A program made the position numbers and the translations under genes. 63,089 nt of DNA from a virus (taxonomy: Duplodnaviria; Caudoviricetes): the IMG/VR virus record IMGVR_UViG_3300044729_002069, positions 1 to 63,089 of that record. One strand, 5' to 3'. Under the pieces are notes generated by a model. The model was given only the letters and a program-made list of their open reading frames with translations, was not told where the DNA came from and did no database searches. Shown here one piece after another: positions 41,566 to 60,163 of the stretch (the first letter of the stretch is position 1; every line of letters starts with the position of its first letter).

Positions 41566-41760
41566 TCAATCGCATAAGCCTTCACGATCTTCGACAGAGC
41601 AGCGGTCTTTCGCAAACAGGATGGCATCGTTGCGACTGCGGAAGTAGTGCGGGCGTCCTTCCCAAGCGATGAACCATTGAAAACCAGGCCGACTGGCGCA
41701 AGGCCACACCTTGATCGCAGACACCATAAATGGCGCGGGAAGGTCATCAAACATGCCCAT
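41566..41760 (-). CDS. Hypothetical protein
   Basis: 64 aa; co-oriented with the RNR genes. Confidence 0.6.
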   Translation of the reverse strand: MGMFDDLPAPFMVSAIKVWPCASRPGFQWFIAWEGRPHYFRSRNDAILFAKDRCSVEDREGLCD

Positions 41761-41761
41761 A

Positions 41762-41794
41762 AAAGAAGCCCCTAGTCAGTTAAGGCTAGGGGCG
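41762..41794 (-). terminator. Intrinsic terminator
   Basis: GCCCCTAG...CTAGGGGC stem followed by TTCTTTT on the minus strand. Confidence 0.6.
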
Positions 41795-41823
41795 ATGGAA
41801 GGGAAGTGGTTGTTCGTTGTGAG

Positions 41824-41922
41824 CTATTTGCGTCTAAGACGATGAGGAGAACAAATGCCGCCGTTGCCGTAGCCGTAGCCGGAGCCGTGGCCGTAGCCTA
41901 CGGGACGAAATATAGCGGTCAT
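41824..41922 (-). CDS. Gly/Tyr-repeat micropeptide (32 aa); not in the ORF track
   Basis: TGATG-coupled; MTAIFRPVGYGHGSGYGYGNGGICSPHRLRRK. Confidence 0.65.
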   Translation of the reverse strand: MTAIFRPVGYGHGSGYGYGNGGICSPHRLRRK

Positions 41923-42242
41923 CACAGCCCCCAGTTGTCGCTTACCGGCACGCAGAAAATTTCTGCGCCTTCGGGCATGTCCACATCCGCCATTGGGCGA
42001 ATGTCGGCGTTGCTGGGGTTTTCAATGACCTTGGCAAAGCCGCAGCTTTCCCAGCGGAACACCCACACAGCACGACTGATCCTGATGCGGCCATTCTCAC
42101 GGGTGATGTCACCAGCAAAAATCCAACCACGATCAACAACAATTACAGCGCGGTTGCCATTGGGTTTGGCTGCAGGAATAGAATCGGCCCTGACGTATTC
42201 CACGCCATTAACAGAAATGGAAGGCAGTTCAGCGGAAGTCAT
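41922..42242 (-). CDS. Small beta-rich hypothetical protein (DUF6948-like)
   Basis: Start MTSAEL at 42242; VIV..DRGW.F.G......I.I..A..V.RW...G. Confidence 0.65.
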   Translation of the reverse strand: MTSAELPSISVNGVEYVRADSIPAAKPNGNRAVIVVDRGWIFAGDITRENGRIRISRAVWVFRWESCGFAKVIENPSNADIRPMADVDMPEGAEIFCVPVSDNWGL

Positions 42243-42274
42243 GAGAAAAGAGCGATGGGGAATGAGGCAAGGCA

Positions 42275-42303
42275 AGGATAGAGCAGGCTTGTTGCCTTGT
42301 CAA
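42275..42303 (-). promoter_or_regulatory. sigma70-type promoter
   Basis: TTGACA-N17-TATCCT. Confidence 0.65.
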
Positions 42304-42674
42304 GCGTCCGTTGGCGGAAGATAACTGGAGAATGCATCACTGAGGGCTTCATGGCCAATGCCAGGTACTTTCTCCAGCCATTGATAAACTGCTCCAAAGA
42401 GCTTGTCGGCAGAATGTTCAAGATCATGCACGCCTTCGGAGTAGCCTTCAAGAACAGTGCATACGTCATCGTAGATGGTGGGAGGCTGTTCCCAAGGTTC
42501 CTTTTCTTTGGCTTCTTCTTTTGCAAGAAGATAACCAAAGGCTGCAGCAGCACTTTTCGTTGCGCATAGATCAAAAGGCTCAAAGCGCTCTACAAGCAGC
42601 TTGAACTCTGGCAATGGCGCGTGCTGCATGGCGAGGCCGATTAGACGGTTTTTGGTGGAGAAATGGTCAGTCAT
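42300..42674 (-). CDS. Hypothetical protein
   Basis: Start MTDHF at 42674 overlapping the upstream stop. Confidence 0.6.
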   Translation of the reverse strand: MTDHFSTKNRLIGLAMQHAPLPEFKLLVERFEPFDLCATKSAAAAFGYLLAKEEAKEKEPWEQPPTIYDDVCTVLEGYSEGVHDLEHSADKLFGAVYQWLEKVPGIGHEALSDAFSSYLPPTDA

Positions 42675-43005
42675 TGGGCAAAGCCTCCAATGCGCGGCGG
42701 ACGGTGTCAACATGCGCCTTTAGTTCATCGTGGACAGTGTATGCTTTGAGTTGGTCAATAGCGTAGCCGTCGATTTCATCGAGAGCGGACAACGCCTGTT
42801 GTTTTACGCTTGGCGGCTTGGGGCGGCGGGTGGCGCGGAGGTGGTTGCTTGTTTGATAGAAACCGCAGCGATTGAGCCACTCACAGCACGCCTCCAGCTC
42901 CTGATCTGCGCCAGCTTGGAATGCCGTTTCTATCGCGCACATTGGAGGCAGTCCGTTCAATTCCTTTATCAGCTCTGCTTGCATTTTCGCAGGATGATCA
43001 GTCAT
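42667..43005 (-). CDS. Cyanophage-type hypothetical protein
   Basis: Start MTDHP at 43005; GADQELEACCEWL...LR..RRPKPPS.K.QAL...RRALE.LP. Confidence 0.7.
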   Translation of the reverse strand: MTDHPAKMQAELIKELNGLPPMCAIETAFQAGADQELEACCEWLNRCGFYQTSNHLRATRRPKPPSVKQQALSALDEIDGYAIDQLKAYTVHDELKAHVDTVRRALEALPND

Positions 43006-43462
43006 TATTCTTCTCGTAGTAGCCAGCGGCATCCACCCAGCCCAGCAGGAGATCACTGTCGGACGGTGAAAGATCAATGGTTCCATTGCTGCGCTTTTTC
43101 CAGTAAGCAACTCCTTGATCGGTTTCACTCCAGGCAAATGCTCCCATAAGTTTGTAGCAGTCACCGTTAAGAGCTTCCACTGTGGCGGCCTTGTCAAATG
43201 CAATTTTGTTCAAGAACTTTTCAGTCACTGCAGGCTTGAAAGCCTCCTTCTTTAACGCTCTATTTGCAAGCAGCCTTTCCACTGCCTGGACAATCAGAGG
43301 CCACTCTTCAATGTCAATGGGAAGTTCGGTGTCAATTTCTTCAACTCGTAGCAAGATACATTTATCTTCTCCCCCCTCGTTTTCAATGGTGACGCGGGTG
43401 GAATAGGAGTGTTCGTCGCTGGGTACGGTTTCGTAGCCAAGGTTGCGAAGCGTGTAAGGCAT
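42998..43462 (-). CDS. Hypothetical protein
   Basis: 154 aa; AF.W..T.QG..YW motif; upstream TTGACG-N16-TATGCT promoter. Confidence 0.65.
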   Translation of the reverse strand: MPYTLRNLGYETVPSDEHSYSTRVTIENEGGEDKCILLRVEEIDTELPIDIEEWPLIVQAVERLLANRALKKEAFKPAVTEKFLNKIAFDKAATVEALNGDCYKLMGAFAWSETDQGVAYWKKRSNGTIDLSPSDSDLLLGWVDAAGYYEKNND

Positions 43463-43574
43463 GGTTGAGCCTTAAGGAACCTGCCTAGCATAAGCCTCTG
43501 CCTGCCCTCGTCAATCAGTCTCAACTGTCGCTTTGAGACTCAGCACGACAGCATTCCCTTGACTGCGCCAGTAG

Positions 43575-43811
43575 TCACCATTCCGGCCAGGAGCCATCTA
43601 GGTCTAATTCTTCCATGGAAGTGCGTAGGACTGTGGCAGCATGGCCAGTCTTGCCCGTGAGCGTAGGAGCGTAGCTGCCTTTCACGGAAGGCTGGAGCAA
43701 AGCCTTGAGCTTGCGGACTAGCTGGTTGTGCGTGCGCTTCTTGGCAATAGTGACTGACCAAATGGCTTCAAAGCGAAGCAAGGTGCGGGAAGGCTCAGAG
43801 CGTACGGTCAT
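43575..43811 (-). CDS. Hypothetical protein
   Basis: ATG at 43811, just after the upstream stop. Confidence 0.5.
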   Translation of the reverse strand: MTVRSEPSRTLLRFEAIWSVTIAKKRTHNQLVRKLKALLQPSVKGSYAPTLTGKTGHAATVLRTSMEELDLDGSWPEW

Positions 43812-43815
43812 GGGG

Positions 43816-44433
43816 CTACGGGCGAAGAGATCGAACGCTTTTACGAGGACGAGGCTGCGCTGCAAGCTTCCTGTAGAGAGTCATGCCAGCTTCCGTGAGT
43901 GCATACAGCCCTCTCTCTGGGCGCCAAGTCAAACCTTCATTCGCCATCCTGCTCAGCGTGTTGTAGATGGTCTGCTGAGGAATGGTAACGCTAGGCAGTC
44001 GGTGGATGCTTTCAGGAGACAGTGGCACAGGCGATGATCCCAAGGCTTCAATGATGATTTCCCTGGCGGGGCGTGAACCGTTGCTGCCAATCCTCCAAAG
44101 CAAGCGATTCTTGTAGTTGCCAATGGCGCACCGAGCTTCTCTTGTCTGACAAGGCAATCTCCTGACGAACTCCCGCAGCAGTGCATTGTTTGGCCTCCAT
44201 GAAGGAGCTGACAATGTGGCCATGGGAGCAATGGCGTCCAGGCGGGCAGTGATGGCCAGTTCGTCGTTGACAGACGCTGCTACCACCTTGAGCACAACAA
44301 GACGATGGGGAGAGTACCAGAGGAGGTCGAGCAAGCCCTGCTTAAAGGCTTCTGGAGTGGTTCGCCATGAGCAGTAGACAAAATCTGGATCGTTTTCCCA
44401 TTGAGCGACAAAAAAGCGACCGTCGTAGTCCAT
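43816..44433 (-). CDS. Protein with a C-terminal winged helix-turn-helix
   Basis: IIEAL....PLS...I......TIYNTLSRM..EGL..R.ERGLYALT. Confidence 0.7.
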   Translation of the reverse strand: MDYDGRFFVAQWENDPDFVYCSWRTTPEAFKQGLLDLLWYSPHRLVVLKVVAASVNDELAITARLDAIAPMATLSAPSWRPNNALLREFVRRLPCQTREARCAIGNYKNRLLWRIGSNGSRPAREIIIEALGSSPVPLSPESIHRLPSVTIPQQTIYNTLSRMANEGLTWRPERGLYALTEAGMTLYRKLAAQPRPRKSVRSLRP

Positions 44434-44439
44434 GAAAGA

Positions 44440-45430
44440 CAGGATTGACTTACCAGAAGCACCTTACCACTTACCACTTTTGCTTGCAAGCCCTGTCGTA
44501 GCAATGCCCTCGCACTTACCACCACCCATCGTTTACAATAGCGTTATGCGCAGCGTGTGTCTACGAGCAGTTGACGTGCCAACGCGCAGTGGTGCGAGCT
44601 GAACTGAGCGGTTACGAGCAGTTCAGGAACCTCCGCGAGCCGCTACGAGCGGGAGCCCCAAGCGTTCCTGACTAAGCGGCTCTGCTCTACCACTCCCTCT
44701 CAACTACCTTCTTCTTCCAGAAGCAGAAGGACGCGGCGAGAGGGAAGCCCCAAAGCGAACGTTCTTAAGCGTCCTTCTTTACGATGCTTTCCTAAGTAAC
44801 CTTCGCTAGGAGCCGAACGAGCAGAGCCACCAGCGTTTCGTACATAAGGCTCCCTCTCCACCACCAATCATCAATCTTCCTTCTTCTGGCGTGAGCGTTG
44901 AGTCTATGGGGAAGGTGTGCTTGCGTGGGGCTGGATAAAGAAAAGAGTTCAATACTATACAAAGAAGAAGAAAACAGCACCGTACTGATCAACGCTCTTG
45001 GGGAGCTACCCGCTCAAACGGTGCTTCCTGCGCGAGAGAACAATGGGAAAGGAAAGGCGGCAAGACATCCCTAATTCCAGAACAAAGCCTTTTCTTAGAG
45101 CGTATATACAACGTATCTACACAATAACTATCAGGAAAACAACTAACTGGTAATTATCAGGAATGCAACTAAAAGAAACAATCGGCCTCTTGAACAATCG
45201 CTAGGGCTACTTCTCGTTCGGCCTGCTACGAACAATCTTATGACCTCACTCCAGCTCGCTCATTGAAGATCGTTCGGTCAGTGACGACTAGCTTCTGACG
45301 GAGTATTGGCACGATGGGCAATGCTTGCTCAGTATTGGCTCTTTCCCATGGTCAGGCAATACTTCATTGTGGGGATGAACCTAGCTATTCCTTTCACTTG
45401 AGAGGGGATTAGCATGTGACATTGACAATT
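44440..45430. other. ~1 kb non-coding region with short repeats (candidate origin/control region)
   Basis: CTTACCA x4 (44449, 44463, 44470, 44515); TACGAGC x3 (44562, 44613, 44644); TATCAGGAA..CAACTA x2 in an A-rich tract; divergent flanking genes. Confidence 0.5.
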
Positions 45431-45438
45431 CAAAAGCT

Positions 45439-46008
45439 ATGGAAAAGCAGTGCTCCAAATGCCGTCTCGTAAAACCACATGAGCTTTTCTCCTTGAACAA
45501 AAGGTCTCATGATGGTTTTAACAACTGGTGTAAAGAGTGCTACAAAGAGTACTACTACGCCAATGCTTCCAAAATCAATAATCAGGCTAAAGCAAGAAGA
45601 CTAACAAATCTGCAGCCCTATACTGAATACCGCCGTCAATACGACAAAGAAAGAGAGAAGGGAGTAACGGGAAAGCTGAGGTCTATGTTGCGATCATCTA
45701 GGAAAAGAGCCAAAGAGAAAGGGCTTGAACATACCCTTAAGCTTGAAGACTTACAAGGATTGATGGTCTCTCATTGCCCCATCAGGCTCAAGAAGTTGTC
45801 ATGGGAAGATTCGGGCACTCAACTGCGCCAGTACGATCCTGATGCACCTTCACTAGACAGGATTGACTCCGCAAAAGGATACATACAAGGTAACGTCCAA
45901 ATTATTTCGCACCAAGCCAACACATGGAAAAATAGCATGACATTGGAACAGGCTCGCATGATTGTCAGATACATAGAAGCTCACTGCGACTGTGGGGATG
46001 AAGATTGA
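45439..46008 (+). CDS. HNH homing endonuclease with N-terminal Zn-finger
   Basis: KQCSKC..K....F......DG....CKEC; PSLDRIDS.KGY..GNVQII...AN..K. Confidence 0.85.
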   Translation: MEKQCSKCRLVKPHELFSLNKRSHDGFNNWCKECYKEYYYANASKINNQAKARRLTNLQPYTEYRRQYDKEREKGVTGKLRSMLRSSRKRAKEKGLEHTLKLEDLQGLMVSHCPIRLKKLSWEDSGTQLRQYDPDAPSLDRIDSAKGYIQGNVQIISHQANTWKNSMTLEQARMIVRYIEAHCDCGDED

Positions 46009-46091
46009 AAACTGCATCGAAATCCCGTTCCGTTTGGGAGGAGATACCCCGAGCAAACCAGCGCGAGGCTGGCTGTTACTGCTCCCTACGC

Positions 46092-46167
46092 TGTAGCGTG
46101 TGATACAGTTTCACACTTTGTAACGTAGATACATTGTAGATACGGGCGAAAATGAGAATGATTCTCC
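46092..46167. promoter_or_regulatory. Cluster of host TF-like sites: NtcA box, HLR1-like repeat, Fur-like box
   Basis: TGTA-GCGTGTGA-TACA (46092-46107); minus-strand GTTACAAA-GT-GTGAAACT-GT-ATCACACG; TGAGAAT-G-ATTCTCC (46153-46167). Confidence 0.6.
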
Positions 46168-46225
46168 CTTTCCCAAAAGAAAAAGCCCACCAACACTCAG
46201 TCAGCAGGCAGGCAAGCACTAACGG

Positions 46226-46417
46226 TCAGAAGCCCTGAAAGCCCTTCCTAAGGGCTTCCGTTGCGCTTCTGAAAGGGGAGCAAGGGGAAGCTTGGCAAAG
46301 CTTGCCAGAAGCGCTGCTAAGGGCTTCCTGCAGGCTTTCGGGAGCTTCTTCCTGCAGGCTTTCTGCAGCAAGCAAAAGAGCGAAAGCCTCAGAAGGGCTA
46401 AGGGAAAGTTTGATCAA
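46226..46417 (-). CDS. Hypothetical protein (compositionally biased island)
   Basis: 63 aa, L/S/A/E-rich; TTGA overlap with the upstream gene. Confidence 0.55.
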   Translation of the reverse strand: MIKLSLSPSEAFALLLAAESLQEEAPESLQEALSSASGKLCQASPCSPFRSATEALRKGFQGF

Positions 46418-46851
46418 GCTTCCCCTTCTGCGGACTTCCTGTTAGGAAGAGAAAGCCATAGGCTTTTGCCTTCATAGTGTTCACTGTATGGGAGACAAGA
46501 AGAAAGGAAGCGTTCTTCCCCTAGGCTTTCCGCAAGCGGGAAAGCCTCACAAAAGAAAGGGAAAAGCCAGGACAGAAGCTCTTTCTGGAAAACCTCAAAA
46601 GCTTCCAAGCGTTCCCAACCTTGCGGCATCTTGTCTAAGCTTTCAGGCCGATAGAACGTTTCAGGATAGACAAAGTAGCCTTGTTGGGAGCAAAGCGAAA
46701 CAAGATGAGAAGCCCTTAAGGTTTCAGGTTTTCTGAAAAGAAGCCCGAACGTAGCACCGCCACCAACAAAAGGGGACAATGTGGCAAGGGCTTTCACTGA
46801 GGGAAGCTCAGCAGAAGCGAAAGAGGGAAGCGAAAGAGAAGGGGAAAGCAT
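46414..46851 (-). CDS. Hypothetical protein (compositionally biased island)
   Basis: Probable start MLSPSLSLPSF at 46851 after a pyrimidine-rich leader. Confidence 0.65.
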   Translation of the reverse strand: MLSPSLSLPSFASAELPSVKALATLSPFVGGGATFGLLFRKPETLRASHLVSLCSQQGYFVYPETFYRPESLDKMPQGWERLEAFEVFQKELLSWLFPFFCEAFPLAESLGEERFLSSCLPYSEHYEGKSLWLSLPNRKSAEGEA

Positions 46852-46882
46852 GGCAGAAAAGAGGGAAAGGAAAAAGGGAAGC

Positions 46883-47050
46883 TCAGCGAGAAAGACAGAA
46901 AGCCTGGAAAGCGTCAAGAAAGAGGAAGAAATCTTCTTCTGACTGATGATTTCCGGCACTTTCAGCGAAAGCATTAAGGGCCTGCAAGGCATATTGCGCT
47001 TCCTTTCTATTGAGAAAAGAGAAGGAAGCGGGAAAGCCGGGATCTTCCAT
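46883..47050 (-). CDS. Hypothetical 55 aa acidic/Phe-rich protein; not in the ORF track
   Basis: MEDPGFPASFSFLNRKEAQYALQALNAFAESAGNHQSEEDFFLFLDAFQAFCLSR; leader CTTTCCCCATG. Confidence 0.55.
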   Translation of the reverse strand: MEDPGFPASFSFLNRKEAQYALQALNAFAESAGNHQSEEDFFLFLDAFQAFCLSR

Positions 47051-47098
47051 GGGGAAAGAAAGAGGGAAAGAGGGAAGCCCGAAAGCTTCCCCATAGGA

Positions 47099-48430
47099 TT
47101 ACTTGCGCTTCTGTACTGGCATCAACAAAGCTCTTTCCTTTCCTTCTGAAAAGGTGATAGGAGCAATGCTATAGGTCCATCCCAGTTCAATCCTTTCCCC
47201 TGAAAAGCTTTTAAGAAGCTTCTCCAAAAAGAAAGCGTTAACCACAAAAGCGCTTTCTTTTTCGCAGGCTTCCTTTGCCGCTTCCTGGTCCTTTTCTTTC
47301 AGCTCCCAGAAGCCGTCGGAAAGCTCGGGCTTTTGCGGGAAAGCCCGAAAGGAAGCCCTTACGCTTGCTTCCTGGCTTCCTATGGGGGCAAGGTCTGGAC
47401 TGTACTTGCTTCCCTTGCCAGTATCTGCCATCAACTCAGCAGAAAGGAAGATTTCCCCTATGGCGCCGTCTGTTGTGATCTGGACGTGGGGATTTCCAGC
47501 GCTTCCTTTCAGGGCAGAAAGCAAAGGGGAAAGAGCAGACAGAAGGGCTTTCCTGTCAACTGACAGTTTGTGCTTTTGTTCAGGGAAGAGCTGTTGATAG
47601 TTGGGGAAGCTTCCGCAAAGGGGAAAGCGCAACGCTACGAAAGAAGAAAGCCCGAAAGAGAAGCGCAAGAAGCCCGCTTCCCGCTTTTCTTGCCAGAAGC
47701 CCAAAAGCTTTTCCCGCTCTTTCTTGACTGTGCAAGCTTCCAGCAAGGGAAGAACAAAAGCGGGAAGCCAGGCAGAAGCCGGGAAGCTTTCGGCTTTCCA
47801 ATAGGAGGGAAGGTCTGCGGGAGCTTCCCTCAGACAGAAACCATCAGTAGCGCAAAAGCTCTTCTCAGAAAAGCCAATCCCACTAAGAGCAAGCTTTGCT
47901 TCGTCTCTTGAGGGAAGCCCTTTCAGGCTGAAAAGCGGAGCAAGCGGGAAGCCTTCCAAAAGCCCTTCCGCTTTCAGGAAAGGAAGCAAGGGAAGCTCTT
48001 TCTCATACAGTTCGTCCTGTTCTGAAAGCTCAAAAGCTTCAGCAGAAAGCGCAATCTTCCCGCCCTTGTCATCACAAAAGCTTTCACCGTTGAAAGATAC
48101 TGTCCCTTTTCCTTTTGTGGCTTTCAGGAAAGAAAGCAAGGGGAAGAAGGGAAAAGAAAGCCGTTTGGCTTCTCCATGGAAAGGAGATAGTTCAGTAGGA
48201 AGCCAGGCAGCGAAAGCGCTTTTGCCTGCAAAAGCTTCCACCAAAAGCCCGGCGCCATCAGCAGAAAGGAAAAGCCGGTCGCCAGTGATCCCGTAAGTTT
48301 GAGCTTTTCTGAAAGCTTCTGCCGCTTTTGCCACGGCCAGAAGCTCAAAAGAAGAGGCAACAAAAGAAAGCATGGGAGCAGAAGCGGGGGAAGCGGGAAG
48401 TGTGGAAAGGGAAAGAGAAGGGGAAGCCAT
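47099..48430 (-). CDS. Divergent DNA polymerase III beta sliding clamp-like protein
   Basis: S.DE.K..LSGI......ATDG..L, G.FPNYQQLFP, V.RK.LL.AL, N..FL...L, ALLMPV all match DnaN motifs. Confidence 0.75.
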   Translation of the reverse strand: MASPSLSLSTLPASPASAPMLSFVASSFELLAVAKAAEAFRKAQTYGITGDRLFLSADGAGLLVEAFAGKSAFAAWLPTELSPFHGEAKRLSFPFFPLLSFLKATKGKGTVSFNGESFCDDKGGKIALSAEAFELSEQDELYEKELPLLPFLKAEGLLEGFPLAPLFSLKGLPSRDEAKLALSGIGFSEKSFCATDGFCLREAPADLPSYWKAESFPASAWLPAFVLPLLEACTVKKEREKLLGFWQEKREAGFLRFSFGLSSFVALRFPLCGSFPNYQQLFPEQKHKLSVDRKALLSALSPLLSALKGSAGNPHVQITTDGAIGEIFLSAELMADTGKGSKYSPDLAPIGSQEASVRASFRAFPQKPELSDGFWELKEKDQEAAKEACEKESAFVVNAFFLEKLLKSFSGERIELGWTYSIAPITFSEGKERALLMPVQKRK

Positions 48431-48468
48431 GGGAAAAAGGGAAAGAGGGAAGGAAGGGGAGAGAAGCC

Positions 48469-48660
48469 TTAAAAGGGGTTACTCCAGTTAAATGCTTGCG
48501 TATCGGTTACTAGGCCCGATTTATTTAAGGCATCCACGTAGTTGTTAAAAGCCTCCCTTTTGGCAGTGACATCCCCTCTCCACTGAGGGGCATTCTCTAA
48601 GTGTTCCCTCCATGCTTGGCGGAAGTTTGCTAACACTTGGGCTTTAGTTAGTTTTTTCAT
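48469..48660 (-). CDS. Hypothetical early protein
   Basis: TKAQ....FR..W......D..AKREAFNNY.D.L.K.G..T..Q...W.NPF. Confidence 0.7.
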   Translation of the reverse strand: MKKLTKAQVLANFRQAWREHLENAPQWRGDVTAKREAFNNYVDALNKSGLVTDTQAFNWSNPF

Positions 48661-48693
48661 GATGGGAGGCCAAACAGGATAAATAACAGCGAT

Positions 48694-49062
48694 CTAGCAA
48701 CAGGCAAGCGCCACACTTGAATAACACTGGTCAATAGGGAACCCGCGACCGGCCAAGTCCGATTCGCGGTAAAAATACAACGCGCAACCCCTAGGGTCGG
48801 CTTGGTGATAGATTAGCCCGCCGCACTTAGCGGCTAAATCTGCCGCTTCTTTAAGTAGCTTTGCCTCCTGATTGGAGATAATGCCACCTTTAAGAGTGCA
48901 GTTGCCGTAACGGTCAAGATAGTAACGGCGAGGGATTGTGCATTCTGCATCGTCCCATTGGATAGCGCCGTTGCATTCAGCCTCTGCCCACTTATGCAGA
49001 CGGCGTTGGATGGCGCACAAGCGGCTGAAAACGGAAGCCGGTAAATCTTTTTTTGTTGTCAT
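48694..49062 (-). CDS. Hypothetical early protein
   Basis: LH.WAE.ECNG...YHQ.DPRGCALY. Confidence 0.75.
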   Translation of the reverse strand: MTTKKDLPASVFSRLCAIQRRLHKWAEAECNGAIQWDDAECTIPRRYYLDRYGNCTLKGGIISNQEAKLLKEAADLAAKCGGLIYHQADPRGCALYFYRESDLAGRGFPIDQCYSSVALACC

Positions 49063-49107
49063 GGAAAAGGAAGAGAAGGGAAAGCCTCACGGTCGCCCGT
49101 GAGGGAA

Positions 49108-49159
49108 GCCGTCGCCCGGGATCGAACCGGAACAAAGCGCCACCAAGCGCAACGACAGG
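49108..49159 (-). ncRNA. Mini tRNA-like element lacking an anticodon arm, in a 5' leader
   Basis: CTGTCG/CGACGG stem; GCGC-TTGGTG-GCGC D-like hairpin; CCGG-TTCGATC-CCGG T-arm. Confidence 0.5.
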
Positions 49160-49313
49160 AAAAAGGGAAAGGCTTTCGCCTTTCCCCCTGGAAGTCGGTT
49201 TATCAAGTTTTCTAGGTTCGCTTGCAAGCGTACCACCGATAAAGGCCATCGCCAGCCCATCGGCTCCACTGATCAGCAGCTCCGATGGGAACGGCCAAAA
49301 TCGCCGCATTCCC

Positions 49314-49825
49314 ATAGGCTGAGCTTGTGCATTAGCTGAGCTTCTGTGATCTGCGCGTTCTGGGATTTTATGATCAGCCTGGCTTATGGGAGCCTGGCAA
49401 GCGTTGGCCACCTAGCATGGCCTGGCGACGTTTCGACGTTCCGTTACATTCCGTCACAATGCGCAGCCCATAACGGCAGCATCATATGGGCATGGCTGAC
49501 GCAAGCGTTCGTTACGTTCCGTCACATAACAGCAGCATGTTATGGGCATTGCCAGGTCAAGCCTGCTGTAACATTCCGTAACATTCCGCCCGATAGTACG
49601 CCTGTACTGCAGTACACCTGTACCATCAGCCAGGCTTATGGCAAGCATAAGCTTCCCTTATGGTACGCCTGTACTATAGGCTCGGCTTATGTTACAGATA
49701 GGCTCAGCTTATGGTACGTCTGTACGCTAGTACGCTTGTTCCATGGTACGCCTGTACCATTAGCGCAGCTCATGGGAGGCATAAGCCAGGCTTATGGTAC
49801 GCCTGTACTAGAGTACGTCTGTACT
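49314..49825. promoter_or_regulatory. Tiled array of cyanobacterial LexA boxes, LysR-type boxes and RpaB HLR1 repeats
   Basis: RGTAC-N3-DGTWCB x8; ATNAG/ATAGG-N5-CTTAT-like x9; GTTACATT-CC-GTCACAAT-like x3. Confidence 0.75.
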
Positions 49826-49879
49826 ATTATGCGGCTTAAAGCATATGCCGATAAAGAAATATGCCGGTAGGAGCATAAA

Positions 49880-50105
49880 AAGCTGGTTCTAGCCTGTCCT
49901 CAAGAAGCTGGTTCTGGCCGGTTCTGAAAAAGCTGGTTCTGGCCTGTCCTCGACAAGCTGCTTCTGGCCGGTTCTAAAAACGATCTTGCCCTGCCCTGTC
50001 CTCAGCCAGTTCTCGTTTCAGCCTGTCATCAAGAAGCCGCCTCTGGCCGGTTCTGAAACGATCCTGTCCTGTCCTGTCCTTAACAAGCTGGTGCTGGCTA
50101 GTCCT
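49880..50105. repeat. 25-bp tandem repeat (4 clear copies plus degenerate ones)
   Basis: AAGCTGGTTCT(A/G)GCC(TGTCCT/GGTTCT) starting at 49880, 49905, 49930, 49955. Confidence 0.85.
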
Positions 50106-50680
50106 CAGCTTCCCCATTGTTCTGCCATTGCTTGAGCAATGCCAAGGTAAGTTGCGCTTCTTATCTTCCACCTATCCTCACTTGGCCCCAGTTTATTTTG
50201 CCCGCTTGGTGTTTGATTGTTCCATCTTCCCGATGGTGACAATTCAAGAATGTCAGTAGGTTGAAGAAGAGGGAGATTCTTTAACCACAGACAAGTTGCT
50301 TTTGCTTCAGCGTGACCAAACTGCCAAGGTTGCACAATTTGATCTGGCTTTCTGATGCGAGAGGAAATAATGCTCACTGGATTTTCTAGGGCAATGCGTT
50401 CAATGGGAGCATTAAGCAGTAGCCGCACAAATTCAAGAGCTTCTGCCTGCTCTTTTTGCTTGTCCTTAAACCATCGTGCTCCACTAACGGCCAAGTGCGT
50501 ACATGGAGGATGAGCAATCATTAAATCCCACCCATCGCTCAAGATGTCGCACACATCTCCTTGATAGTGCGGCCCAGGCTTGTCAGTAGGCAACAAATCA
50601 CAGCTCATTGCTTCGTGACCAGCCGCAATAAAAGCATCACGAACAGTGCCAGAATACTCGCAAGCAACCAATACTTTCAT
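50105..50680 (-). CDS. Short phage C5 cytosine DNA methyltransferase-like protein
   Basis: Start MKVLVACEYSG at 50680; SCDL, DL.IAHPPC, ENPV, QPWQFG, RS.T..GIA.AMA.QW. Confidence 0.8.
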   Translation of the reverse strand: MKVLVACEYSGTVRDAFIAAGHEAMSCDLLPTDKPGPHYQGDVCDILSDGWDLMIAHPPCTHLAVSGARWFKDKQKEQAEALEFVRLLLNAPIERIALENPVSIISSRIRKPDQIVQPWQFGHAEAKATCLWLKNLPLLQPTDILELSPSGRWNNQTPSGQNKLGPSEDRWKIRSATYLGIAQAMAEQWGS

Positions 50681-50819
50681 GGGAAGGGAAGATAGTTGTT
50701 CAACAAGAAAAGGTATTTGCAAAGAGCAATAGGCATCAAACAAGCCATTTCTTTGCTCAGTGGAACTGGCGTAATCTTCTGTGCCATCAGGCAAATGAAA
50801 AGTGCCAAAGCATTGTCAC

Positions 50820-51026
50820 TTAGCTTTTTTGGATTGCGTAGGCATCTTTGACAAAGGTTTTGATAGTGGTGAGGCTGGAGTCAATAATAGTGCCGCCACC
50901 GCCAAGAGCATCAGTTGTCCACCCATAGCGCAAGTGACAGCACCATTCTTTGCTGAATGGTTCACGTTCTAACGACTTCACTCCAGGGAAGGAAAGAATG
51001 GCCTGAGCGAGCTTAGGGAGAGGCAT
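50820..51026 (-). CDS. Hypothetical protein
   Basis: Start MPLPK at 51026. Confidence 0.55.
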   Translation of the reverse strand: MPLPKLAQAILSFPGVKSLEREPFSKEWCCHLRYGWTTDALGGGGTIIDSSLTTIKTFVKDAYAIQKS

Positions 51027-51076
51027 GGCTGTGGAGAGCGAGTTGCAAGCAAGAATAGCAGAAGATTGGTTAGTCC

Positions 51077-51331
51077 TCAAAAGCAGTCGAAGGTGTCCTC
51101 CACTGTCCACTCAGGCCCATAGTCTTCCAGCCATTGCTTCTGCTCTGTTTCCGTCTCTGGCCAGTCCTCAGGCTCTGTGAGCACCACGGCAGTACATAGT
51201 GCTGGAGCCCATTCCTCAGGTTCCCAGCGGCTTGCGGGGCACACACAGCGCATGTCATCAACAATGGCCTCCACGCGCACGGTGCCCCTGTCTGGGTTGC
51301 CTTGCCAACTTTCAATGGAGAGAATCGCCAT
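51077..51331 (-). CDS. Cyanophage-type acidic hypothetical protein
   Basis: ILSIES...V.A.VDD......S..EP.EW.PALC. Confidence 0.65.
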   Translation of the reverse strand: MAILSIESWQGNPDRGTVRVEAIVDDMRCVCPASRWEPEEWAPALCTAVVLTEPEDWPETETEQKQWLEDYGPEWTVEDTFDCF

Positions 51332-51333
51332 CA

Positions 51334-51639
51334 TCAAGCCCTCTTGAACTTGGAAAGGCACAGTTGCCACAATTCTTCGCTCATGCTGCCAGGGCGATAG
51401 AGCCTGTAAGCCCGTGGCGCATAAAACCAGCCGCCTTCGCCATCAGGCTCTGGCTCTCCTTCATCCTGCCAAATGCCTTTACATTCTCCATTGTCGTCAA
51501 ACAAGCCGATTTGATACTCACCATCGGCCATACATTGACGAATGTGGCGAATTGCATCAGTGAGAGAATTGGCTTGATACACGCCTTGCGTGGGTGGGAA
51601 GTAGGGACCGTTGCTGTCGTAGCTGCGGATGATTGCCAT
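51334..51639 (-). CDS. Hypothetical protein
   Basis: Start MAIIRSY at 51639 after a pyrimidine-rich leader. Confidence 0.65.
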   Translation of the reverse strand: MAIIRSYDSNGPYFPPTQGVYQANSLTDAIRHIRQCMADGEYQIGLFDDNGECKGIWQDEGEPEPDGEGGWFYAPRAYRLYRPGSMSEELWQLCLSKFKRA

Positions 51640-51687
51640 GGGGAGGAAAAGAGGGGCAGAAGAGAGGCCCTGGCGGACCATGGAGAA

Positions 51688-51903
51688 TCAGGTTTTAGAC
51701 CAGCGGATCAGTCGGTCCACAATGTCATCACTGGTTTCATTAAACAGGGAAGTGGCAATGCCATTGTGCTGGAGGTGCAGCCTGCCGTTCTCGTCTTTCC
51801 AAAGATCAGTGCAGAAAGGCAATGCAAGCGACTGGCCAGGAGTGGCACGAACAAAGAACCGAGCAATGGTAGAACGCAGGGCTTCAGCTTGAGAAGTGGT
51901 CAT
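51688..51903 (-). CDS. Hypothetical protein
   Basis: Start MTTSQ at 51903. Confidence 0.55.
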   Translation of the reverse strand: MTTSQAEALRSTIARFFVRATPGQSLALPFCTDLWKDENGRLHLQHNGIATSLFNETSDDIVDRLIRWSKT

Positions 51904-51987
51904 GGCTAGTAGCGAAGGAGAGGCTCTCGCCCCGTTGAACCAACAATACAGTACTTCCTCCCCACCATCGCCTCTTGTCACAAGCGT

Positions 51988-52200
51988 TCACAAAACAGGC
52001 TTCCACGGGGGAGGCTCCAGCCCATCCACCACGGCAATGCGCCTGCGGTTGACGGCTCCAATGCGCAAAAGCGACCGCGCCTGGCGTTCTAGCGCTTGCC
52101 TGTCCGGTCCTGAGTCAAGCAGCTCCCAGTGAGCAGCGGGATCAGGCAAGAGCCTGCTCAGCCACAAGCTATGACCCAACGGGCGCTCAACGATGGCCAC
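51988..52200 (-). CDS. Hypothetical protein
   Basis: Co-oriented and overlapping the upstream gene. Confidence 0.5.
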   Translation of the reverse strand: MAIVERPLGHSLWLSRLLPDPAAHWELLDSGPDRQALERQARSLLRIGAVNRRRIAVVDGLEPPPWKPVL

Positions 52201-52387
52201 GGGCCTGCTCCTGGGCGACGGTGGCTGGAAGGTGCGTTAAACGGCAGTATTTTTGCGGATGGAGCTTTATGCAGGCTGCGTAGTCTGTTCGCCTATCTTC
52301 TGCAACAGGCGAATAGACGACAATAGCAATGGCTGCCAGCCAAGGAGCGATGGCAGCAGCAATAGTGAGAAAGCGAAGGGGGTGCAT
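52187..52387 (-). CDS. Small membrane-anchored protein
   Basis: N-terminal hydrophobic helix; Y.AC...HP.KYC.L.H. Confidence 0.6.
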   Translation of the reverse strand: MHPLRFLTIAAAIAPWLAAIAIVVYSPVAEDRRTDYAACIKLHPQKYCRLTHLPATVAQEQARGHR

Positions 52388-52417
52388 GGACTTGAGGGCG
52401 AAGGTGAGTGAACAAAA

Positions 52418-53011
52418 TCAGACCAAGGATTCGCGCAACGCTTTCACCCAGGCCGTTTGCTCAGCAGCCCGTTTCACTTCCTTTGCATAGTGCTCTCTGT
52501 GGTAAGAAAGAGCACCCTCGCAACCTTTGATTTTCCGCTGTAGCCATTCTTCTCCAGACAATCGCTCACAAGGCTTGCTGCAATGCTCTGTTGAGCAGTC
52601 AAAACGGATGCTTTCTGTGATTTGCTCACGCATAAACTTCTTAAGCTCATGGTGATCGTCTGTGGGCGGATTCCATCGCTCCACTTGGTTAAGCATGTCT
52701 TCATAAGAAGCCCGCAATGCAAGTGCCCTTTGCAGACGCTCCAATCGGCTTACTTCAGCCTGTTCCCATTCTTGATTGGCTGCACGGGTGCAGTCTGCTG
52801 CAGACATCTTGGAAAGGCGTTCCAGTTCAGTCCTGGTGCGGTCAATGGCCTTAAGGTGATAGTCGCTGGGCTCAAAGGCATCAGGAATTTGCTCACCACC
52901 GCCGGGCTCATCCCTCAAGGTGATGCAGGCGCCAAAAGCGCGAGCGCAATCAAGGGCGAACTGCTGAAAGGTGATTCTTTTTGCAATAGGGGCAGTGTAT
53001 CCAGAAGGCAT
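52418..53011 (-). CDS. Conserved phage hypothetical coiled-coil protein
   Basis: MP.GYTA.I...ITF.QFAL.CARAFGA.I..RD...W.PPT..H..LK.FM..QI..SI..D. Confidence 0.8.
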   Translation of the reverse strand: MPSGYTAPIAKRITFQQFALDCARAFGACITLRDEPGGGEQIPDAFEPSDYHLKAIDRTRTELERLSKMSAADCTRAANQEWEQAEVSRLERLQRALALRASYEDMLNQVERWNPPTDDHHELKKFMREQITESIRFDCSTEHCSKPCERLSGEEWLQRKIKGCEGALSYHREHYAKEVKRAAEQTAWVKALRESLV

Positions 53012-53037
53012 GGCGTGATAGAGGGATCAACAGGGCC

Positions 53038-53089
53038 ACAATAGCCTTACGAGCCTGGCCTGTCCAGCTCTGTGACAATGCTTCACAAG
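53038..53089 (-). promoter_or_regulatory. Promoter with an upstream HLR1-like repeat
   Basis: TGGACA-N17-TATTGT; GTGACAAT-GC-TTCACAAG at 53072-53089 on the + strand. Confidence 0.55.
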
Positions 53090-53120
53090 CCTGTGTCCTG
53101 CGCTACAGTTGCGCCAAGGC

Positions 53121-53147
53121 AAGAAAAAGCGCCCCTTGCGGAGCGCC
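53121..53147 (-). terminator. Intrinsic terminator
   Basis: GCGCTCC-GCAA-GGGGCGC followed by TTTTTCTT. Confidence 0.7.
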
Positions 53148-53229
53148 TTGAACTGTTCTCTCCCCTATCTTGCCTGCCCCATTGCCCCTTGTGAAGCCTT
53201 TGTCAGCAAAGGCGGATAGGCACTTACGC

Positions 53230-53439
53230 CTAGGGCTTCAGGCTTGCAACGGAGAATTGCGGCAGCCTGCCCATACGCAAGCGACTAGGACTGACAAATT
53301 GCTGCGAGCCAGTCTTGAGGTTTTTGATCTTGACCAGTTCTGTTTGCACCTTACTGGCCACTACGACGTAGCTTCCTCGCCAGCCAAACAGGGCATCGTT
53401 CAAATCAACAACTGCTCCTGGCGCCCATTGCTGCAGCAT
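53230..53439 (-). CDS. Small SH3-like hypothetical protein
   Basis: 69 aa beta-rich W.PG..V...W.G.Y.V.......VKI. Confidence 0.5.
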   Translation of the reverse strand: MLQQWAPGAVVDLNDALFGWRGSYVVVASKVQTELVKIKNLKTGSQQFVSPSRLRMGRLPQFSVASLKP

Positions 53440-53538
53440 TTTCTGACGATTATGGTTCAGCTTTAATTATAGCTGGCTCCTAAGCGCAATAAAAAAGGCG
53501 CCAATGGCGCCCTCTTGTGTTCCTCACACCATCAGACT

Positions 53539-53895
53539 CTACACCAGCCGGTAGCACACCCTAGCAATGCCTTGAGACGGGCTTGCAATGCGACTGAATG
53601 CACCAGCACTCAGGTCGAGAATGCGCCCACCGGCATAAGGCCCGCGATCAGTCACAACCACTTGTATGCTCCGGCTATTGTCTTGATTGACAACCAGCAA
53701 GCGGGTGCCAAAAGGCAGCGAGCGATGGGCAGTGATCGAAGCGGAAGGATTCATTGGCTGGCCATTCGCCATTGTTCGGCCTGCAAAACCATCCCCGCGC
53801 CCATAGAAGCTGGCATCACCACAACGAGCAGCGTGAGCAGGAGCAGGAGCTGCGGCAAGGGCAGCAATGGTCAAAAAAGAAAGGAAACGAAGCAT
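53539..53895 (-). CDS. RlpA-like double-psi beta-barrel (lytic transglycosylase family) with signal peptide
   Basis: ASFYG...G..MANG.......TAHRSLPFGT.L.V......V.V.DRGP...RILDLS..AF. Confidence 0.9.
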   Translation of the reverse strand: MLRFLSFLTIAALAAAPAPAHAARCGDASFYGRGDGFAGRTMANGQPMNPSASITAHRSLPFGTRLLVVNQDNSRSIQVVVTDRGPYAGGRILDLSAGAFSRIASPSQGIARVCYRLV

Positions 53896-54004
53896 CAGAA
53901 AGAAAGTAAGTAGCTAGAGGGGCCAGTCGCCTGGCAGGCTCAGGATTGAGCAATGCCCACCGTAGCAGAACGAACAATGCCCTTGCGTCGTGGTATGCTT
54001 TGTA

Positions 54005-54197
54005 GGCAATTCGCCCCTGAGGCTTAATCGCCTCCATCGCTGATGCCGTGAGGGTGGGAGAGTCCGGTTGGTTTTGCACTATCGAAAGAAGTGCAGCCGA
54101 GCGCATGGGTCGGTGAGGGCGACCAACCAGCTTCGGGAATGAAGCAGGGCTTATCGGAGGATTGCAAGAGGAGAGCCCCGTAAGGGGCTTTCTTTTT
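54005..54197 (+). ncRNA. Putative ~190 nt structured sRNA with its own promoter and terminator
   Basis: Extended -10 TGGTATGCT (53991-53999); nested stems; terminator AGCCCC-GTAA-GGGGCT-TTCTTTTT. Confidence 0.55.
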
Positions 54198-54284
54198 GTC
54201 TATGCTTGTAGCGGGATGTAGGGCGAGTGTTTCTTCGCGCTTGTGAGCAATCAGCTCTCTGCCCGCTAGGCGATTCTCGTCATT

Positions 54285-54306
54285 AAAAAGGCCCCGAAAG
54301 GGGCCT
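54285..54306 (-). terminator. Intrinsic terminator, possibly bidirectional
   Basis: AGGCCCC-GAAA-GGGGCCT preceded by an A-run on the + strand. Confidence 0.7.
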
Positions 54307-54323
54307 GTTCTTTTGCTTGTTGT

Positions 54324-54488
54324 TCAATCTATCGCTCCTGCGCAGTACGCGCCATTGCCCCAGGCGATGGCGCACATGCGCCGAACGTGCTCAGCATGGT
54401 CTTCTTCTTTGCGGGGAGGCATTCCACTTCCCTCGTTAAACCACCAGCGATCAAACGCTTCCATGGCTTCCTTTTGTGTTGTTTTCAT
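54324..54488 (-). CDS. Hypothetical 54 aa protein; not in the ORF track
   Basis: MKTTQKEAMEAFDRWWFNEGSGMPPRKEEDHAEHVRRMCAIAWGNGAYCAGAID. Confidence 0.6.
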   Translation of the reverse strand: MKTTQKEAMEAFDRWWFNEGSGMPPRKEEDHAEHVRRMCAIAWGNGAYCAGAID

Positions 54489-54516
54489 TTAAGGTTTCCA
54501 GGGTAATGATGAAATG

Positions 54517-54660
54517 CTACCAATCGCCTTGTCTGGCAATGCGCAACACTCTTGCGCCAGGGCCTGCCAGCTCAAGAGCAGTCGTAACGGCTTGAGCGGC
54601 GCTGATTGCCATTACGGTCCATGGGCCAAGCGTTGTATGCACAATGTAAGCACAGGGCAT
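54517..54660 (-). CDS. Hypothetical 47 aa protein
   Basis: TAATG-coupled start at 54660; A.S.AQA..TALELAGPG. Confidence 0.6.
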   Translation of the reverse strand: MPCAYIVHTTLGPWTVMAISAAQAVTTALELAGPGARVLRIARQGDW

Positions 54661-54983
54661 TAGCGAGACACGCGGACAATGGCTAGAGGATGTTCCGTGC
54701 AAGCCTTGAGGTAGGAGCAACAGAAATCATACAGGGCTTCCCAATCGCCCCAACCATTAGGCGGGTTGTCTAGTTCGCAGATGTGGCGGTGCATCGCTAA
54801 GAATGCAATGCCCTTTGAGATCGGTTCAATTAGCTGGTGAGCAGTTGTAATGCCAATCTCTTCAAGACGCCATAAGCATTCGTAGATTCCAGCGGTGCCA
54901 GCCATCTTGTTTAGGTTGTGGGTGATGTTGCGCCAGTAAAGATCATTGCCGTTTTCGTCTTCAAGGTGAACGTCAAGACTCAT
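54660..54983 (-). CDS. Conserved phage hypothetical protein
   Basis: MSLDV.L......NITHNL.KMA..AGIY..LW...NPPNGWG. Confidence 0.8.
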   Translation of the reverse strand: MSLDVHLEDENGNDLYWRNITHNLNKMAGTAGIYECLWRLEEIGITTAHQLIEPISKGIAFLAMHRHICELDNPPNGWGDWEALYDFCCSYLKACTEHPLAIVRVSR

Positions 54984-55183
54984 TAGTGGTTCTCCAGTTC
55001 GGTGGCGATGTCATCTAGCCAGTCGTCAGCGGAATCAACGTATTCTTCGTTGGCATATGCTTCGCGAAGCTGATCCGCTGCAGCGATTAGCACAGCTACT
55101 CCTACATCTACAAACGAGTTCCCGTCTTGAGCGTCAATGGCATCCATCACCGCCTGCGCGGCGGGGGATAGGGGTGTGGTCAT
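54983..55183 (-). CDS. Hypothetical protein, MTTPLSPAAQAV family
   Basis: LSPAAQAV.DA...AAADQ...IATELE. Confidence 0.7.
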   Translation of the reverse strand: MTTPLSPAAQAVMDAIDAQDGNSFVDVGVAVLIAAADQLREAYANEEYVDSADDWLDDIATELENH

Positions 55184-55190
55184 TGCGGGA

Positions 55191-55430
55191 TTAGAGGTGC
55201 TTGAGGTGTTTTTTAAGCGTTTGCATTAGCCGTTTGCGGGCACGGTCACGCTCGGATTCGGTGATTACGCCTCGGATGGCGAGGCGCGTAACTTCGTCAA
55301 TGTCACGCTGGAGAAGCTGCCTGCCCATGGGGTCGAGGTCGAGGTTTAAGCCTTGATTGCGGAGTTGCTCACCTAAGGGTGGGCAGAGGGCGCCGAATTT
55401 GATATTGAAGGATTTGGACTTTGGGGTCAT
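55191..55430 (-). CDS. Hypothetical protein
   Basis: FGAL.P.L.EQL..QG...G.IT.SE...AR.RL. Confidence 0.7.
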   Translation of the reverse strand: MTPKSKSFNIKFGALCPPLGEQLRNQGLNLDLDPMGRQLLQRDIDEVTRLAIRGVITESERDRARKRLMQTLKKHLKHL

Positions 55431-56941: not shown

Positions 56942-56976
56942 GGACGTGTCTCTGTGGTGGGGGGGGGGAGTGTTAG

Positions 56977-57369: not shown

Positions 57370-57448
57370 GGGCGTTGAAGTGGGGATCAGTGAAGGGGTG
57401 CTGCCGGATTGGGTGCGGCTCCGGCGGGCCGTGGCGCTCAGGCTGCTA

Positions 57449-60144: not shown

Positions 60145-60163
60145 GGGAGAAAGAGGAAGTCCG

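Follow-up and report, generated by a model that had tools for sequence, protein, structure and literature searches.

Strong depletion of AC, GT, AT and TA steps in a predicted sliding clamp operon of uncultured lake cyanosiphoviruses

GC-biased gene conversion and extreme GC or AT mutation pressure are known to reshape proteins, and mRNAs that lack ACA or other target sites escape MazF-type endoribonucleases. Genome-wide avoidance of palindromes by phages represents selection on DNA words regardless of the reading frame. In T5-like phages, the site freedom of one defined segment decides the outcome of defence: according to the passages of PMC10644984 that deal with this segment, these phages resist restriction-modification, CRISPR (clustered regularly interspaced short palindromic repeats) and Ssp only if the first-step-transfer (pre-early) region is site-free. 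Here we describe a compositional island in the IMG/VR virus record IMGVR_UViG_3300044729_002069 (63,089 bp, linear, about 88% complete by estimate), the whole of which is hereafter called the window. The island is an operon on the minus strand, with a gene for a predicted beta sliding clamp as its largest member, in which the steps AC, GT, AT and TA are strongly depleted. The portal region of the window is 74% identical at the DNA level to that of Synechococcus phage S-CBS4, a terminase, a ribonucleotide reductase and other phage genes are encoded, and 24 lake or freshwater metagenome runs contain at least half of the sampled words from positions 45000–50000; judged by these three features, the window is an uncultured freshwater cyanosiphovirus.

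DNA was obtained for two further loci bearing such an island, with clamps 41–42% identical: L002, on a contig of IMG/VR, and L003, on one from a metagenome. In all three, as with the compositional drives, a nucleotide-level force overrides amino acid preference and leaves directional replacements; those drives, however, shift base content over genomes or recombination hot spots, whereas the island has an unchanged G+C content, is limited to one operon and carries rare variants that run against a biased mutational input. ACA-less mRNAs resemble the island in that a short word is removed by synonymous and conservative changes, but there a single word is avoided in a strand-specific way, while in the island complementary steps are depleted alike. 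The palindrome avoidance of phages is strongly evident in the backbone of the window itself; the rule of the island differs from it in being local, in applying to dinucleotide steps and 4-mers, in altering the protein sequences and in bringing no additional loss of palindromes. Finally, the likeness to the T5-like region would lie in the position of the L002 island at the presumed first-injected end of a cos phage. What is missing from the T5 regions is a number of particular sites; these regions carry host-takeover genes, the composition of their proteins is not altered and their stepwise injection is demonstrated. In the island a class of dinucleotides is missing, the genes are a clamp and unknowns, and an early entry is presumed for L002 by analogy with lambda. 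A literature search, limited in depth, found no described phenomenon of this kind.

A bounded island and its grammar

The preliminary description of this DNA had reported, from hand counts, no AC, GT or AT step in 46261–46380 and three in 47641–47760. Both counts were exactly reproduced, and nothing else in the 63 kb is comparable: outside the island, a 120-nt segment holds 18.1 such steps on average (standard deviation 3.5, minimum 8, 6039 overlapping segments). Most 100-nt segments of the island contain 0–7 of them, the genome mean being 15.0 (standard deviation 3.6), and no 100-nt segment with six or fewer was found in the record outside 46000–48600. Two-state segmentation placed the island at 46226–48475, with 0.067 AC, GT or AT per step inside versus 0.158 outside. 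The odds ratios in the island and in the rest of the window are 0.32 and 0.74 for AC, 0.36 and 0.93 for AT, 0.47 and 0.88 for GT, and 0.30 and 0.59 for TA. The largest single change is a smaller number of switches between purine and pyrimidine (31% of island steps vs. 49% elsewhere); the loss of TA is roughly proportional to the overall loss of pyrimidine-to-purine steps, and the share of GC among the purine-to-pyrimidine steps rises to 56%, compared to 38% elsewhere. The G+C content is the same as in the rest; pyrimidines prevail on the coding strand, with T at 0.29, C at 0.27 and A at 0.20.

As already described, the words AAGC, GCTT, AAGCTT and GGGAA dominate the island, and GGCC (three copies) and CCGG (five) are retained. 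The vocabulary can be described only from about 4-mer statistics upward: GCTTCC, pooled, was observed 77 times, where dinucleotide, trinucleotide and tetranucleotide frequencies predict 12.2, 50.2 and 64.2 copies, respectively, and the pooled count of GGAAGC was 52 vs. 6.6 expected from dinucleotides. A grammar of short oligopurine and oligopyrimidine blocks, joined almost only by GpC and led back mostly by CpA or TpG, is well supported by these data, and in such a grammar A:T pairs almost never stand at a purine-to-pyrimidine step. The edges of the island are sharp, coinciding with the stop codon of a neighbouring gene on one side and a terminator on the other, with no gradient from either. 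The upstream gene adjoins the island without a gap and shows no bias whatever, so that a property of the cassette fits better than a property of the position.

Contigs (not reads) of four other runs were compared with the window. Those of run X3 are identical to it over 46129–48378, and a contig of run X8, 2672 bp long, spans 46069–48740 with 26 differences. The contigs of independent runs, the occurrence of the sampled words in 24 runs, the intact reading frames and the predicted clamp fold make an assembly artefact virtually impossible. The island is a real and conserved feature, and the original observation is confirmed in full.

To separate the nucleotide sequence from the protein, codon junctions were compared with a null in which the protein and its own codon usage were kept and synonymous codons were permuted. 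The clamp gene has 20 AC, GT or AT at its junctions vs. 52.8 ± 4.2 expected (z −7.9). The ratios for the three island open reading frames (ORFs) tested are 0.38, 0.48 (for a 226-aa read-through form) and 0.22, while those of 19 background genes mostly fall between 0.7 and 0.95 (range 0.57–1.44). Pooled over ten island genes of the three loci, the junction ratios are 0.17 for AT, 0.30 for GT, 0.40 for TA, 0.45 for AC and 0.74 for CG on the side of depletion, and 1.87 for AA, 1.56 for GC, 1.46 for TT, 1.26 for AG and 1.20 for CT on the side of enrichment. The depletion is strongest in spacers, where ten of them hold only 13 AC, GT or AT in 487 steps (2.7 vs. about 15 per 100). Amino acid or codon usage as the sole cause is ruled out by the junctions and spacers, so that the first objection named in the preliminary description, an effect of amino acid composition alone, falls away.

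At junctions, complementary steps behave alike, the pattern being roughly strand-symmetric, and this points to the DNA duplex as the constrained object. Avoidance of a single word on one mRNA strand, as with MazF, was rejected since complementary junction steps are depleted alike. Synonymous permutation gives only about half of the GCTT and AAGC counts observed, and both words are in excess in each of the three frames. The depletion of AC and GT is limited to direct neighbours, with odds of about 1 at a gap of one, and A and T avoid each other across up to three positions. A long recognition motif around GCTT or AAGC was also considered and rejected, as the information fades within about 3 nt; no periodicity of 10–11 bp and no phased A-tracts were found in the islands.

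The explanation that we tentatively place first, though it remains doubtful in itself, is selection at the level of the duplex for a word-poor "stealth" cassette; it is weighed below together with the defence sites. The rule itself can be stated even more compactly, and this brings in a different kind of agent. AT, GT and AC together are a T preceded by a purine on either strand, which is the tightest single description of the ban, and the restriction of the AC and GT depletion to adjacent bases fits a reader of 2 bp better than protein sites of 4–8 bp. An agent acting on the duplex in a dinucleotide-specific manner might be a base modification by phage or host aimed at T after a purine (equivalently, A before a pyrimidine), or might be a small-molecule or low-specificity nuclease defence, with the operon kept blank; chemical anti-phage defence by DNA intercalators reportedly exists (PMC13250531). 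We consider such an agent quite unlikely. No genes for DNA hypermodification were found in the window (about 88% of the genome), the depletion of TA and CG and the 4-mer vocabulary would stay unexplained, and there is no evident reason why the clamp operon alone should be kept blank.

The clamp operon and its recomposed proteins

The largest gene of the island (47099–48430, minus strand) encodes a protein of 443 aa that matches PHROG 947, "DNA polymerase processivity factor" (E 4.6e-12), and no Pfam family at E up to 1. The AlphaFold2 model reached a predicted local distance difference test (pLDDT) of 81 and a predicted template modelling score (pTM) of 0.74. All Foldseek matches listed for this model were solved DnaN clamps (best E 1.2e-18, alignments of 440–478 columns), with target template modelling (TM) scores of 0.67–0.77 among the first 30. 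The assignment of the gene to DnaN-type beta sliding clamps with a predicted three-domain fold is thus well supported by modelling. The fold and the family are those of bacterial DnaN; the island clamp differs in its length (DnaN has about 365–380 aa), in having no Pfam match, in belonging to a separate phage-only clade and in its unusual composition. Phenylalanine accounts for 8.8% of its residues, and I, V, T, D, N, H, Y and M together (hereafter the banned residues) for 15%, compared to 37% in ordinary DnaN.

The compositional skew is present in all 24 relatives of the clamp, whose identity ranges from 100% down to 39%. A profile search of 1.84 billion representatives returned 13 proteins at E up to 1e-10, followed by a gap before ordinary DnaN, which the family profile reaches only at E of about 5e-9 and weaker. 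The fraction of banned residues is 0.135–0.19 in full-length biased members and 0.22–0.26 in three others; it is 0.32 in P0031 and 0.36 in P0033, two family proteins of normal composition, and 0.372 ± 0.038 in 126 distant DnaN. The family is monophyletic with respect to DnaN (support 100/100), its backbone being not resolved. Searches of a phage isolate collection with the clamp, P0031, P0033 and the island DNA gave no matches.

Compared with P0031 and P0033, the biased clamps have I replaced by L or F, V by L or A, T by S, D by E, and both Y and H by F; the proteins have been reshaped in the directions that had been predicted (I or V to L or F, D to E, T to S or A). Of 272 banned residues of P0031 and P0033, 51 are kept in the biased majority, and the reverse is seen at 21 of 518 positions. 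It is well supported, as far as the model of the fold goes, that the grammar forced conservative replacements in the clamp and left its predicted fold intact. Since P0031 and P0033 have a normal composition, the trait appears to be derived and dispensable for the protein. Where ATN, GTN, ACN and NAY codons (N, any base; Y, pyrimidine) are avoided, the hydrophobic and small residues have to be supplied by YTN, YCN and GCN codons, and this property of the genetic code may largely account for the abundance of pyrimidines on the coding strand.

Rare variants bear on the choice between mutational input and selection. In the group of 83–100% identity, with P0013 and P0014 used for polarisation, 18 derived variants lead from allowed to banned residues and 4 in the opposite direction (218 and 35 polarisable columns); these are protein data only, of modest size. 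We read this as maintenance of the grammar by purifying selection and not by biased mutational input, because new variants recreate banned codons, yet the composition stays constant down to about 40% identity. Repeated 8-mers only slightly exceed a third-order Markov model (z 1.5–3.1); for direct 8-mer repeats no more than 60 nt apart, the counts in the three loci are 52, 81 and 83 vs. 31, 49 and 52 expected (z 2.3–2.6), and distant repeats are raised similarly. Replication slippage as the origin finds little support, since the repeats are only slightly raised and not specially clustered.

These results bear directly on a local mutational or repair drive, in which the grammar is written by template switching among the many short direct and inverted repeats or by biased gene conversion near a recurrent double-strand break (at cos or at the target of a homing endonuclease), and selection only rescues essential residues. 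The signature is symmetric and strongest at unconstrained sites, as such a drive would have it. Next to the island lies a homing-endonuclease gene carried by only some of the genomes and, in L002, a presumed cos; weak tandem arrays occur inside it, and the slight excess of 8-mers points the same way. Nevertheless, we regard this drive as distinctly improbable, because the rare variants mostly create banned residues, leaving no visible bias of the input, and the edges are sharp and lack a gradient. The repeats, furthermore, are not locally clustered beyond the global vocabulary, the G+C content is unchanged, and the spectrum matches no known repair bias.

As previously stated, the bias covers four genes together with their spacers; the genes share the minus strand and form one operon with an intrinsic terminator at its end. 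The stop codon of the upstream gene, which lacks the bias (48469–48660, PHROG 336), is immediately followed by the leader of the clamp gene (48431–48468); this leader is 38 nt long, consists of 95% pyrimidines and contains neither AC, GT or AT nor a purine run resembling a Shine-Dalgarno sequence. The spacer after the clamp stop codon (47051–47098), read by eye, forms a hairpin with the arms GGGAAGC and GCTTCCC and then runs as a pyrimidine tract into the next gene (46883–47050), which encodes an acidic protein of 55 aa with an isoelectric point (pI) of 4.3. This protein has an 86-aa relative at the matching place in L003 (BLASTP E 3e-5), no relative at that place in L002 and no Pfam family. 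A further leader of 31 nt (46852–46882; 94% pyrimidine, no AC, GT or AT) precedes the gene for a protein of 145 aa and unknown function (46414–46851), which is conserved beside the clamp in all three loci and shares 60–61% identity with its counterparts in L002 and L003. The 226-aa ORF of the ORF list is an upstream read-through of this gene, as the relatives start at an internal Met. The AlphaFold2 model of the 145-aa protein (pLDDT 76) matched no PDB structure, and the protein had no usable hit in a protein atlas; no Pfam or PHROG family was found for the 226-aa form, nor a PHROG for the L002 relative of the 145-aa protein. The last gene (46226–46417) encodes a protein of 63 aa that is conserved in this place in L002 (E 1e-13); its best Pfam match, HTH_PafC, scored 21.7 bits, below the cut-off of 32, and it had no PHROG match. 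The operon is closed by an intrinsic-terminator-like hairpin (46175–46209, minus strand) of 10 pairs followed by TTTTTCTTTT, which marks the 3′ edge of the island. Taken together, the clamp, the 55-, 145- and 63-aa proteins, the leaders and the terminator make a self-contained accessory operon of uncultured lake cyanosiphoviruses, a conclusion that we consider well supported.

The hairpin behind the clamp gene, with the arms GGGAAGC(C) and (G)GCTTCCC, is kept in all three loci (L002 7297–7357, L003 2693–2740), and the change found in L002 leaves the pairing intact. Long alternative ORFs exist in the islands as a consequence of the scarcity of stop codons; overlapping or antisense genes were rejected as an explanation, since neither the position nor the length of these ORFs is conserved between the loci.

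The anatomy of the operon raises the question of selection at the RNA level, for a CU-rich mRNA free of AC, AU, GU, UA and GAG that would evade endoribonucleases (toxin-type or Shine-Dalgarno-cutting) or favour the loading of ribosomes through protein S1 on pyrimidine tracts. The extent of the island is that of an operon, up to the terminator; every gene has a pyrimidine leader of 24–61 nt (77–96% pyrimidine) without a purine-rich ribosome-binding site; the coding strand is 57–60% pyrimidine in all three loci; and ACA (0.25) and GAG (0.32) are among the most depleted trinucleotides in the coding sense. We nevertheless judge it unlikely that RNA is the selected molecule. Where protein constraint is absent, complementary steps are depleted symmetrically, contrary to what a force acting on RNA only predicts, and the pyrimidine excess can be a consequence of the genetic code once codons of the purine-pyrimidine type are banned. 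Pyrimidine leaders also precede some ordinary genes of the window phage. No excess structure was detected (mean z −0.65 in 15 island segments vs. −0.59 in 22 background segments). Among the runs listed as sharing words with this region there was no RNA run. The signature of cyanobacterial RNase E, given in the relevant part of PMC8682795 as A at −3 and U at +2, is not depleted either, the odds for A(N)3T being 0.85–0.95 in the three islands.

Related islands, defence sites and the stealth reading

In L002 and L003, the islands are again bounded, about 3.3–3.6 and 3 kb long, respectively, inside ordinary sequence. Their coding strands are composed much like that of the window island (T 0.29–0.31, C 0.27–0.29, A 0.17–0.20), and their amino acid shifts are alike: F about 9%, L 13–15%, S 12–13%, P 7% and N 0.3–1.0% vs. 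4.3%. The top hexamers are shared by all three loci, with GCTTYC and AAGCTT as the vocabulary, and the gene order, from the clamp through a protein of about 145 aa to one of about 60 aa, is kept. L002 is a phage of a different kind, with a lambda-type GpA terminase, whereas the backbone of the window is S-CBS4-like; S-CBS4 itself has neither the clamp nor the island. Two terminators close the L002 island about 200 bp short of terS and the GpA TerL, which, if lambda's rules hold, would place it at the last-packaged, first-injected end. A collection of viral contigs yielded one contig with a relative and a collection of assembled-genome contigs none; the metagenome matches listed comprised L003, a short locus (L004) and at least ten ordinary DnaN loci without an island.

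Sharp edges and a distinct, symmetric genomic signature could also mean recent, repeated import from genomes written wholly in this grammar, the flux from allowed to banned residues then being amelioration. Such a donor appears very improbable to us: all three loci are bounded islands of 2.3–3.6 kb in ordinary sequence, the composition is equally extreme in clamps of 39–100% identity, the window island follows the palindrome purge of its own backbone, and no genome with such a signature was seen.

Several further features of the L002 island deserve mention. A DUF7447 gene inside it (5368–5706) shows intermediate depletion: the avoided steps number about 20 per 200 nt in this gene, 10–14 in the island and 32 beyond it. 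The gene may have been inserted later and be in the course of adopting the grammar. Upstream of the clamp, L002 (5128–5325, 65 aa) and L003 (681–896, 71 aa) encode a small protein, basic (pI about 9.2) and hydrophobic, that has no counterpart in the window. The cyanobacterial palindrome HIP1 (GCGATCGC) occurs three times, together with many GATC, inside the L002 island (4780–8000), and the L002 flanks (9.2 kb) contain no HIP1.

With regard to the stealth cassette, the word repertoire is the relevant measure. In the window island, 24.2% of the 5-mers are absent, compared to 6.3 ± 2.0% (maximum 11.1%) in 200 phage controls of the same size; the figures for 6-mers are 61.2% vs. 40.9 ± 2.3% (200 controls of that size), and for bipartite words of the type 3-N7-3, 52.6% vs. 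38.5 ± 2.1% (60 such controls). The missing-word figures of the L002 island are similar. In the backbone (1–46000 and 48600–63089, 60.5 kb), 22 of the 64 six-base palindromes are missing and 40 occur no more than twice, when about 15 of each are expected uniformly; AAGCTT, with 21 copies, is tolerated. A backbone purged in this way implies hosts that are probably rich in type II restriction systems. None of the 40 rare palindromes occurs in the island, although 12 of them (by a list read by eye) are compatible with its grammar, including GAGCTC, CAGCTG, AGGCCT and CTCGAG; the odd avoidance of GAG/CTC and CGA/TCG in the island is thereby accounted for. The island is at the same time saturated with a few palindromes, AAGCTT occurring 57 times in 8.5 kb of pooled sequence. 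Palindrome avoidance as the cause of the island was rejected, since palindromes are no rarer there than in comparable sequence.

Under selection for a stealth cassette, the grammar would shrink the variety of short words on either strand, especially those with A/T-containing purine-to-pyrimidine steps, such that no target would be left for the majority of the sequence-specific defences against DNA whose sites are non-palindromic or bipartite. Confining the sequence to a small set of tolerated words (AAGCTT, GCTTYC) would be free of cost, because a nuclease needs only one site. The benefit would fall to DNA that works before, or independently of, the protection of its carrier. A possible reason is that it is the first DNA to enter, as suggested by the island beside the presumed cos of L002; alternatively, the cassette may move between phage backbones with differing hosts, and the sharp edges and the occurrence of the operon in both S-CBS4-like and GpA-terminase backbones are the behaviour of a cassette.

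A number of points weigh against this reading. The benefit is supposed for no particular defence system, motif set or host. Cleavage anywhere kills the phage, so a site-poor stretch of 2.3 kb would help only if the DNA entered stepwise or the cassette itself were the unit of selection. The window island lies about 9.6 kb from a terminase of another type (TerL at 35243–36619), and the ends of the record are not physical ends. The mobile HNH and methyltransferase cassettes of the same window have an ordinary composition, which means that it is no general rule for portable cassettes to become word-poor. The island genes are the clamp and three proteins without a family, among which no anti-defence or host-takeover genes are recognisable. 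The fraction of 6-bp palindromes absent from the island (0.828) does not exceed that of 200 controls (0.844 ± 0.041), and the island is no stealthier in this respect because the whole phage is already purged; the backbone, for its part, reaches palindrome avoidance without low complexity. GATC is retained or enriched, with 7.8 copies per kb in the L002 island and 5.3 per kb in the L003 island, where it accounts for 25 of 78 and 16 of 80 AT steps, respectively. Finally, the DNA comes from three loci only, two of them in one clamp subgroup.

The preliminary description had proposed a segment purged of a whole class of defence targets, with GATC among the avoided Dnd motifs, and plausibly the DNA that enters the cell first. 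The proposal concerning GATC fails in view of its persistence in L002 and L003. The stealth segment is upheld as regards the smaller repertoire of short words, but it gains nothing from palindromes, GATC or the gene content. An early entry of the DNA fits the L002 island, directly before terS and GpA, if lambda's rules hold, and finds no support in the distance and type of the terminase in the window.

Whichever force is at work, a selective force on DNA steps can be confined to one operon while its proteins diverge to about 40% identity, and its strength can suffice to recast a replication protein in about 12 favoured amino acids with the predicted fold kept. The clamp family is, under any of these forces, a natural experiment on the tolerance of the beta clamp for a reduced alphabet. 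If the avoidance of defence is the true cause, the operon would represent a natural stealth by low word diversity and a marker for the DNA that a phage must keep safe. If a dinucleotide-specific agent is, the island would point to new biochemistry and be the footprint of an undescribed DNA-recognition system, for example of cyanobacterial immunity, and a scan could reveal more of them. The junction-aware dinucleotide scan is applicable to all viral contigs.

Neighbouring features of the window

Compared to S-CBS4, the window carries an accessory block of 9.7 kb (41755–51452), and the island lies inside it. The flanks of the block match S-CBS4 at about 26–202 and 69342–69400, which is the opening point of that linear record; nothing relevant to the termini of S-CBS4 was found in the literature. 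No phage tRNAs were found in the window.

Directly downstream of the island, a homing endonuclease of the HNH/EndoVII type is encoded at 45439–46008. In the X3 and X8 contigs, 45379 is joined to 46034 with about 31 other bases replacing this gene, a mobile gene that some genomes of the population carry and others lack. A second block of about 1 kb (50080–51081) is skipped in the X3, X8 and X19 contigs, where 11–18 other bases stand in its place; it carries a DNA methyltransferase gene (50105–50794, PHROG 757).

Upstream of the clamp operon, the non-coding stretch 49469–49980 contains clusters of tandem repeats with units of 56, 22, 16 and 25 bp, and in L002 three non-coding tandem-repeat arrays (4200–4780) lie upstream of the clamp operon just as in the window; these clusters may be an origin or a regulatory region. 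Repeats are also found at a distance from the island. A 15-bp unit is repeated 26.5 times, with a super-unit of 45 bp, at 56463–56859 within a gene (56168–56941) that matches several PHROGs of unknown function. Four perfect copies of a 22-bp unit (58978–59065) are shared between the start of the gene 59057–59830, a match to PHROG 645 with the name "Rnase E", and the spacer that lies ahead of the next gene.

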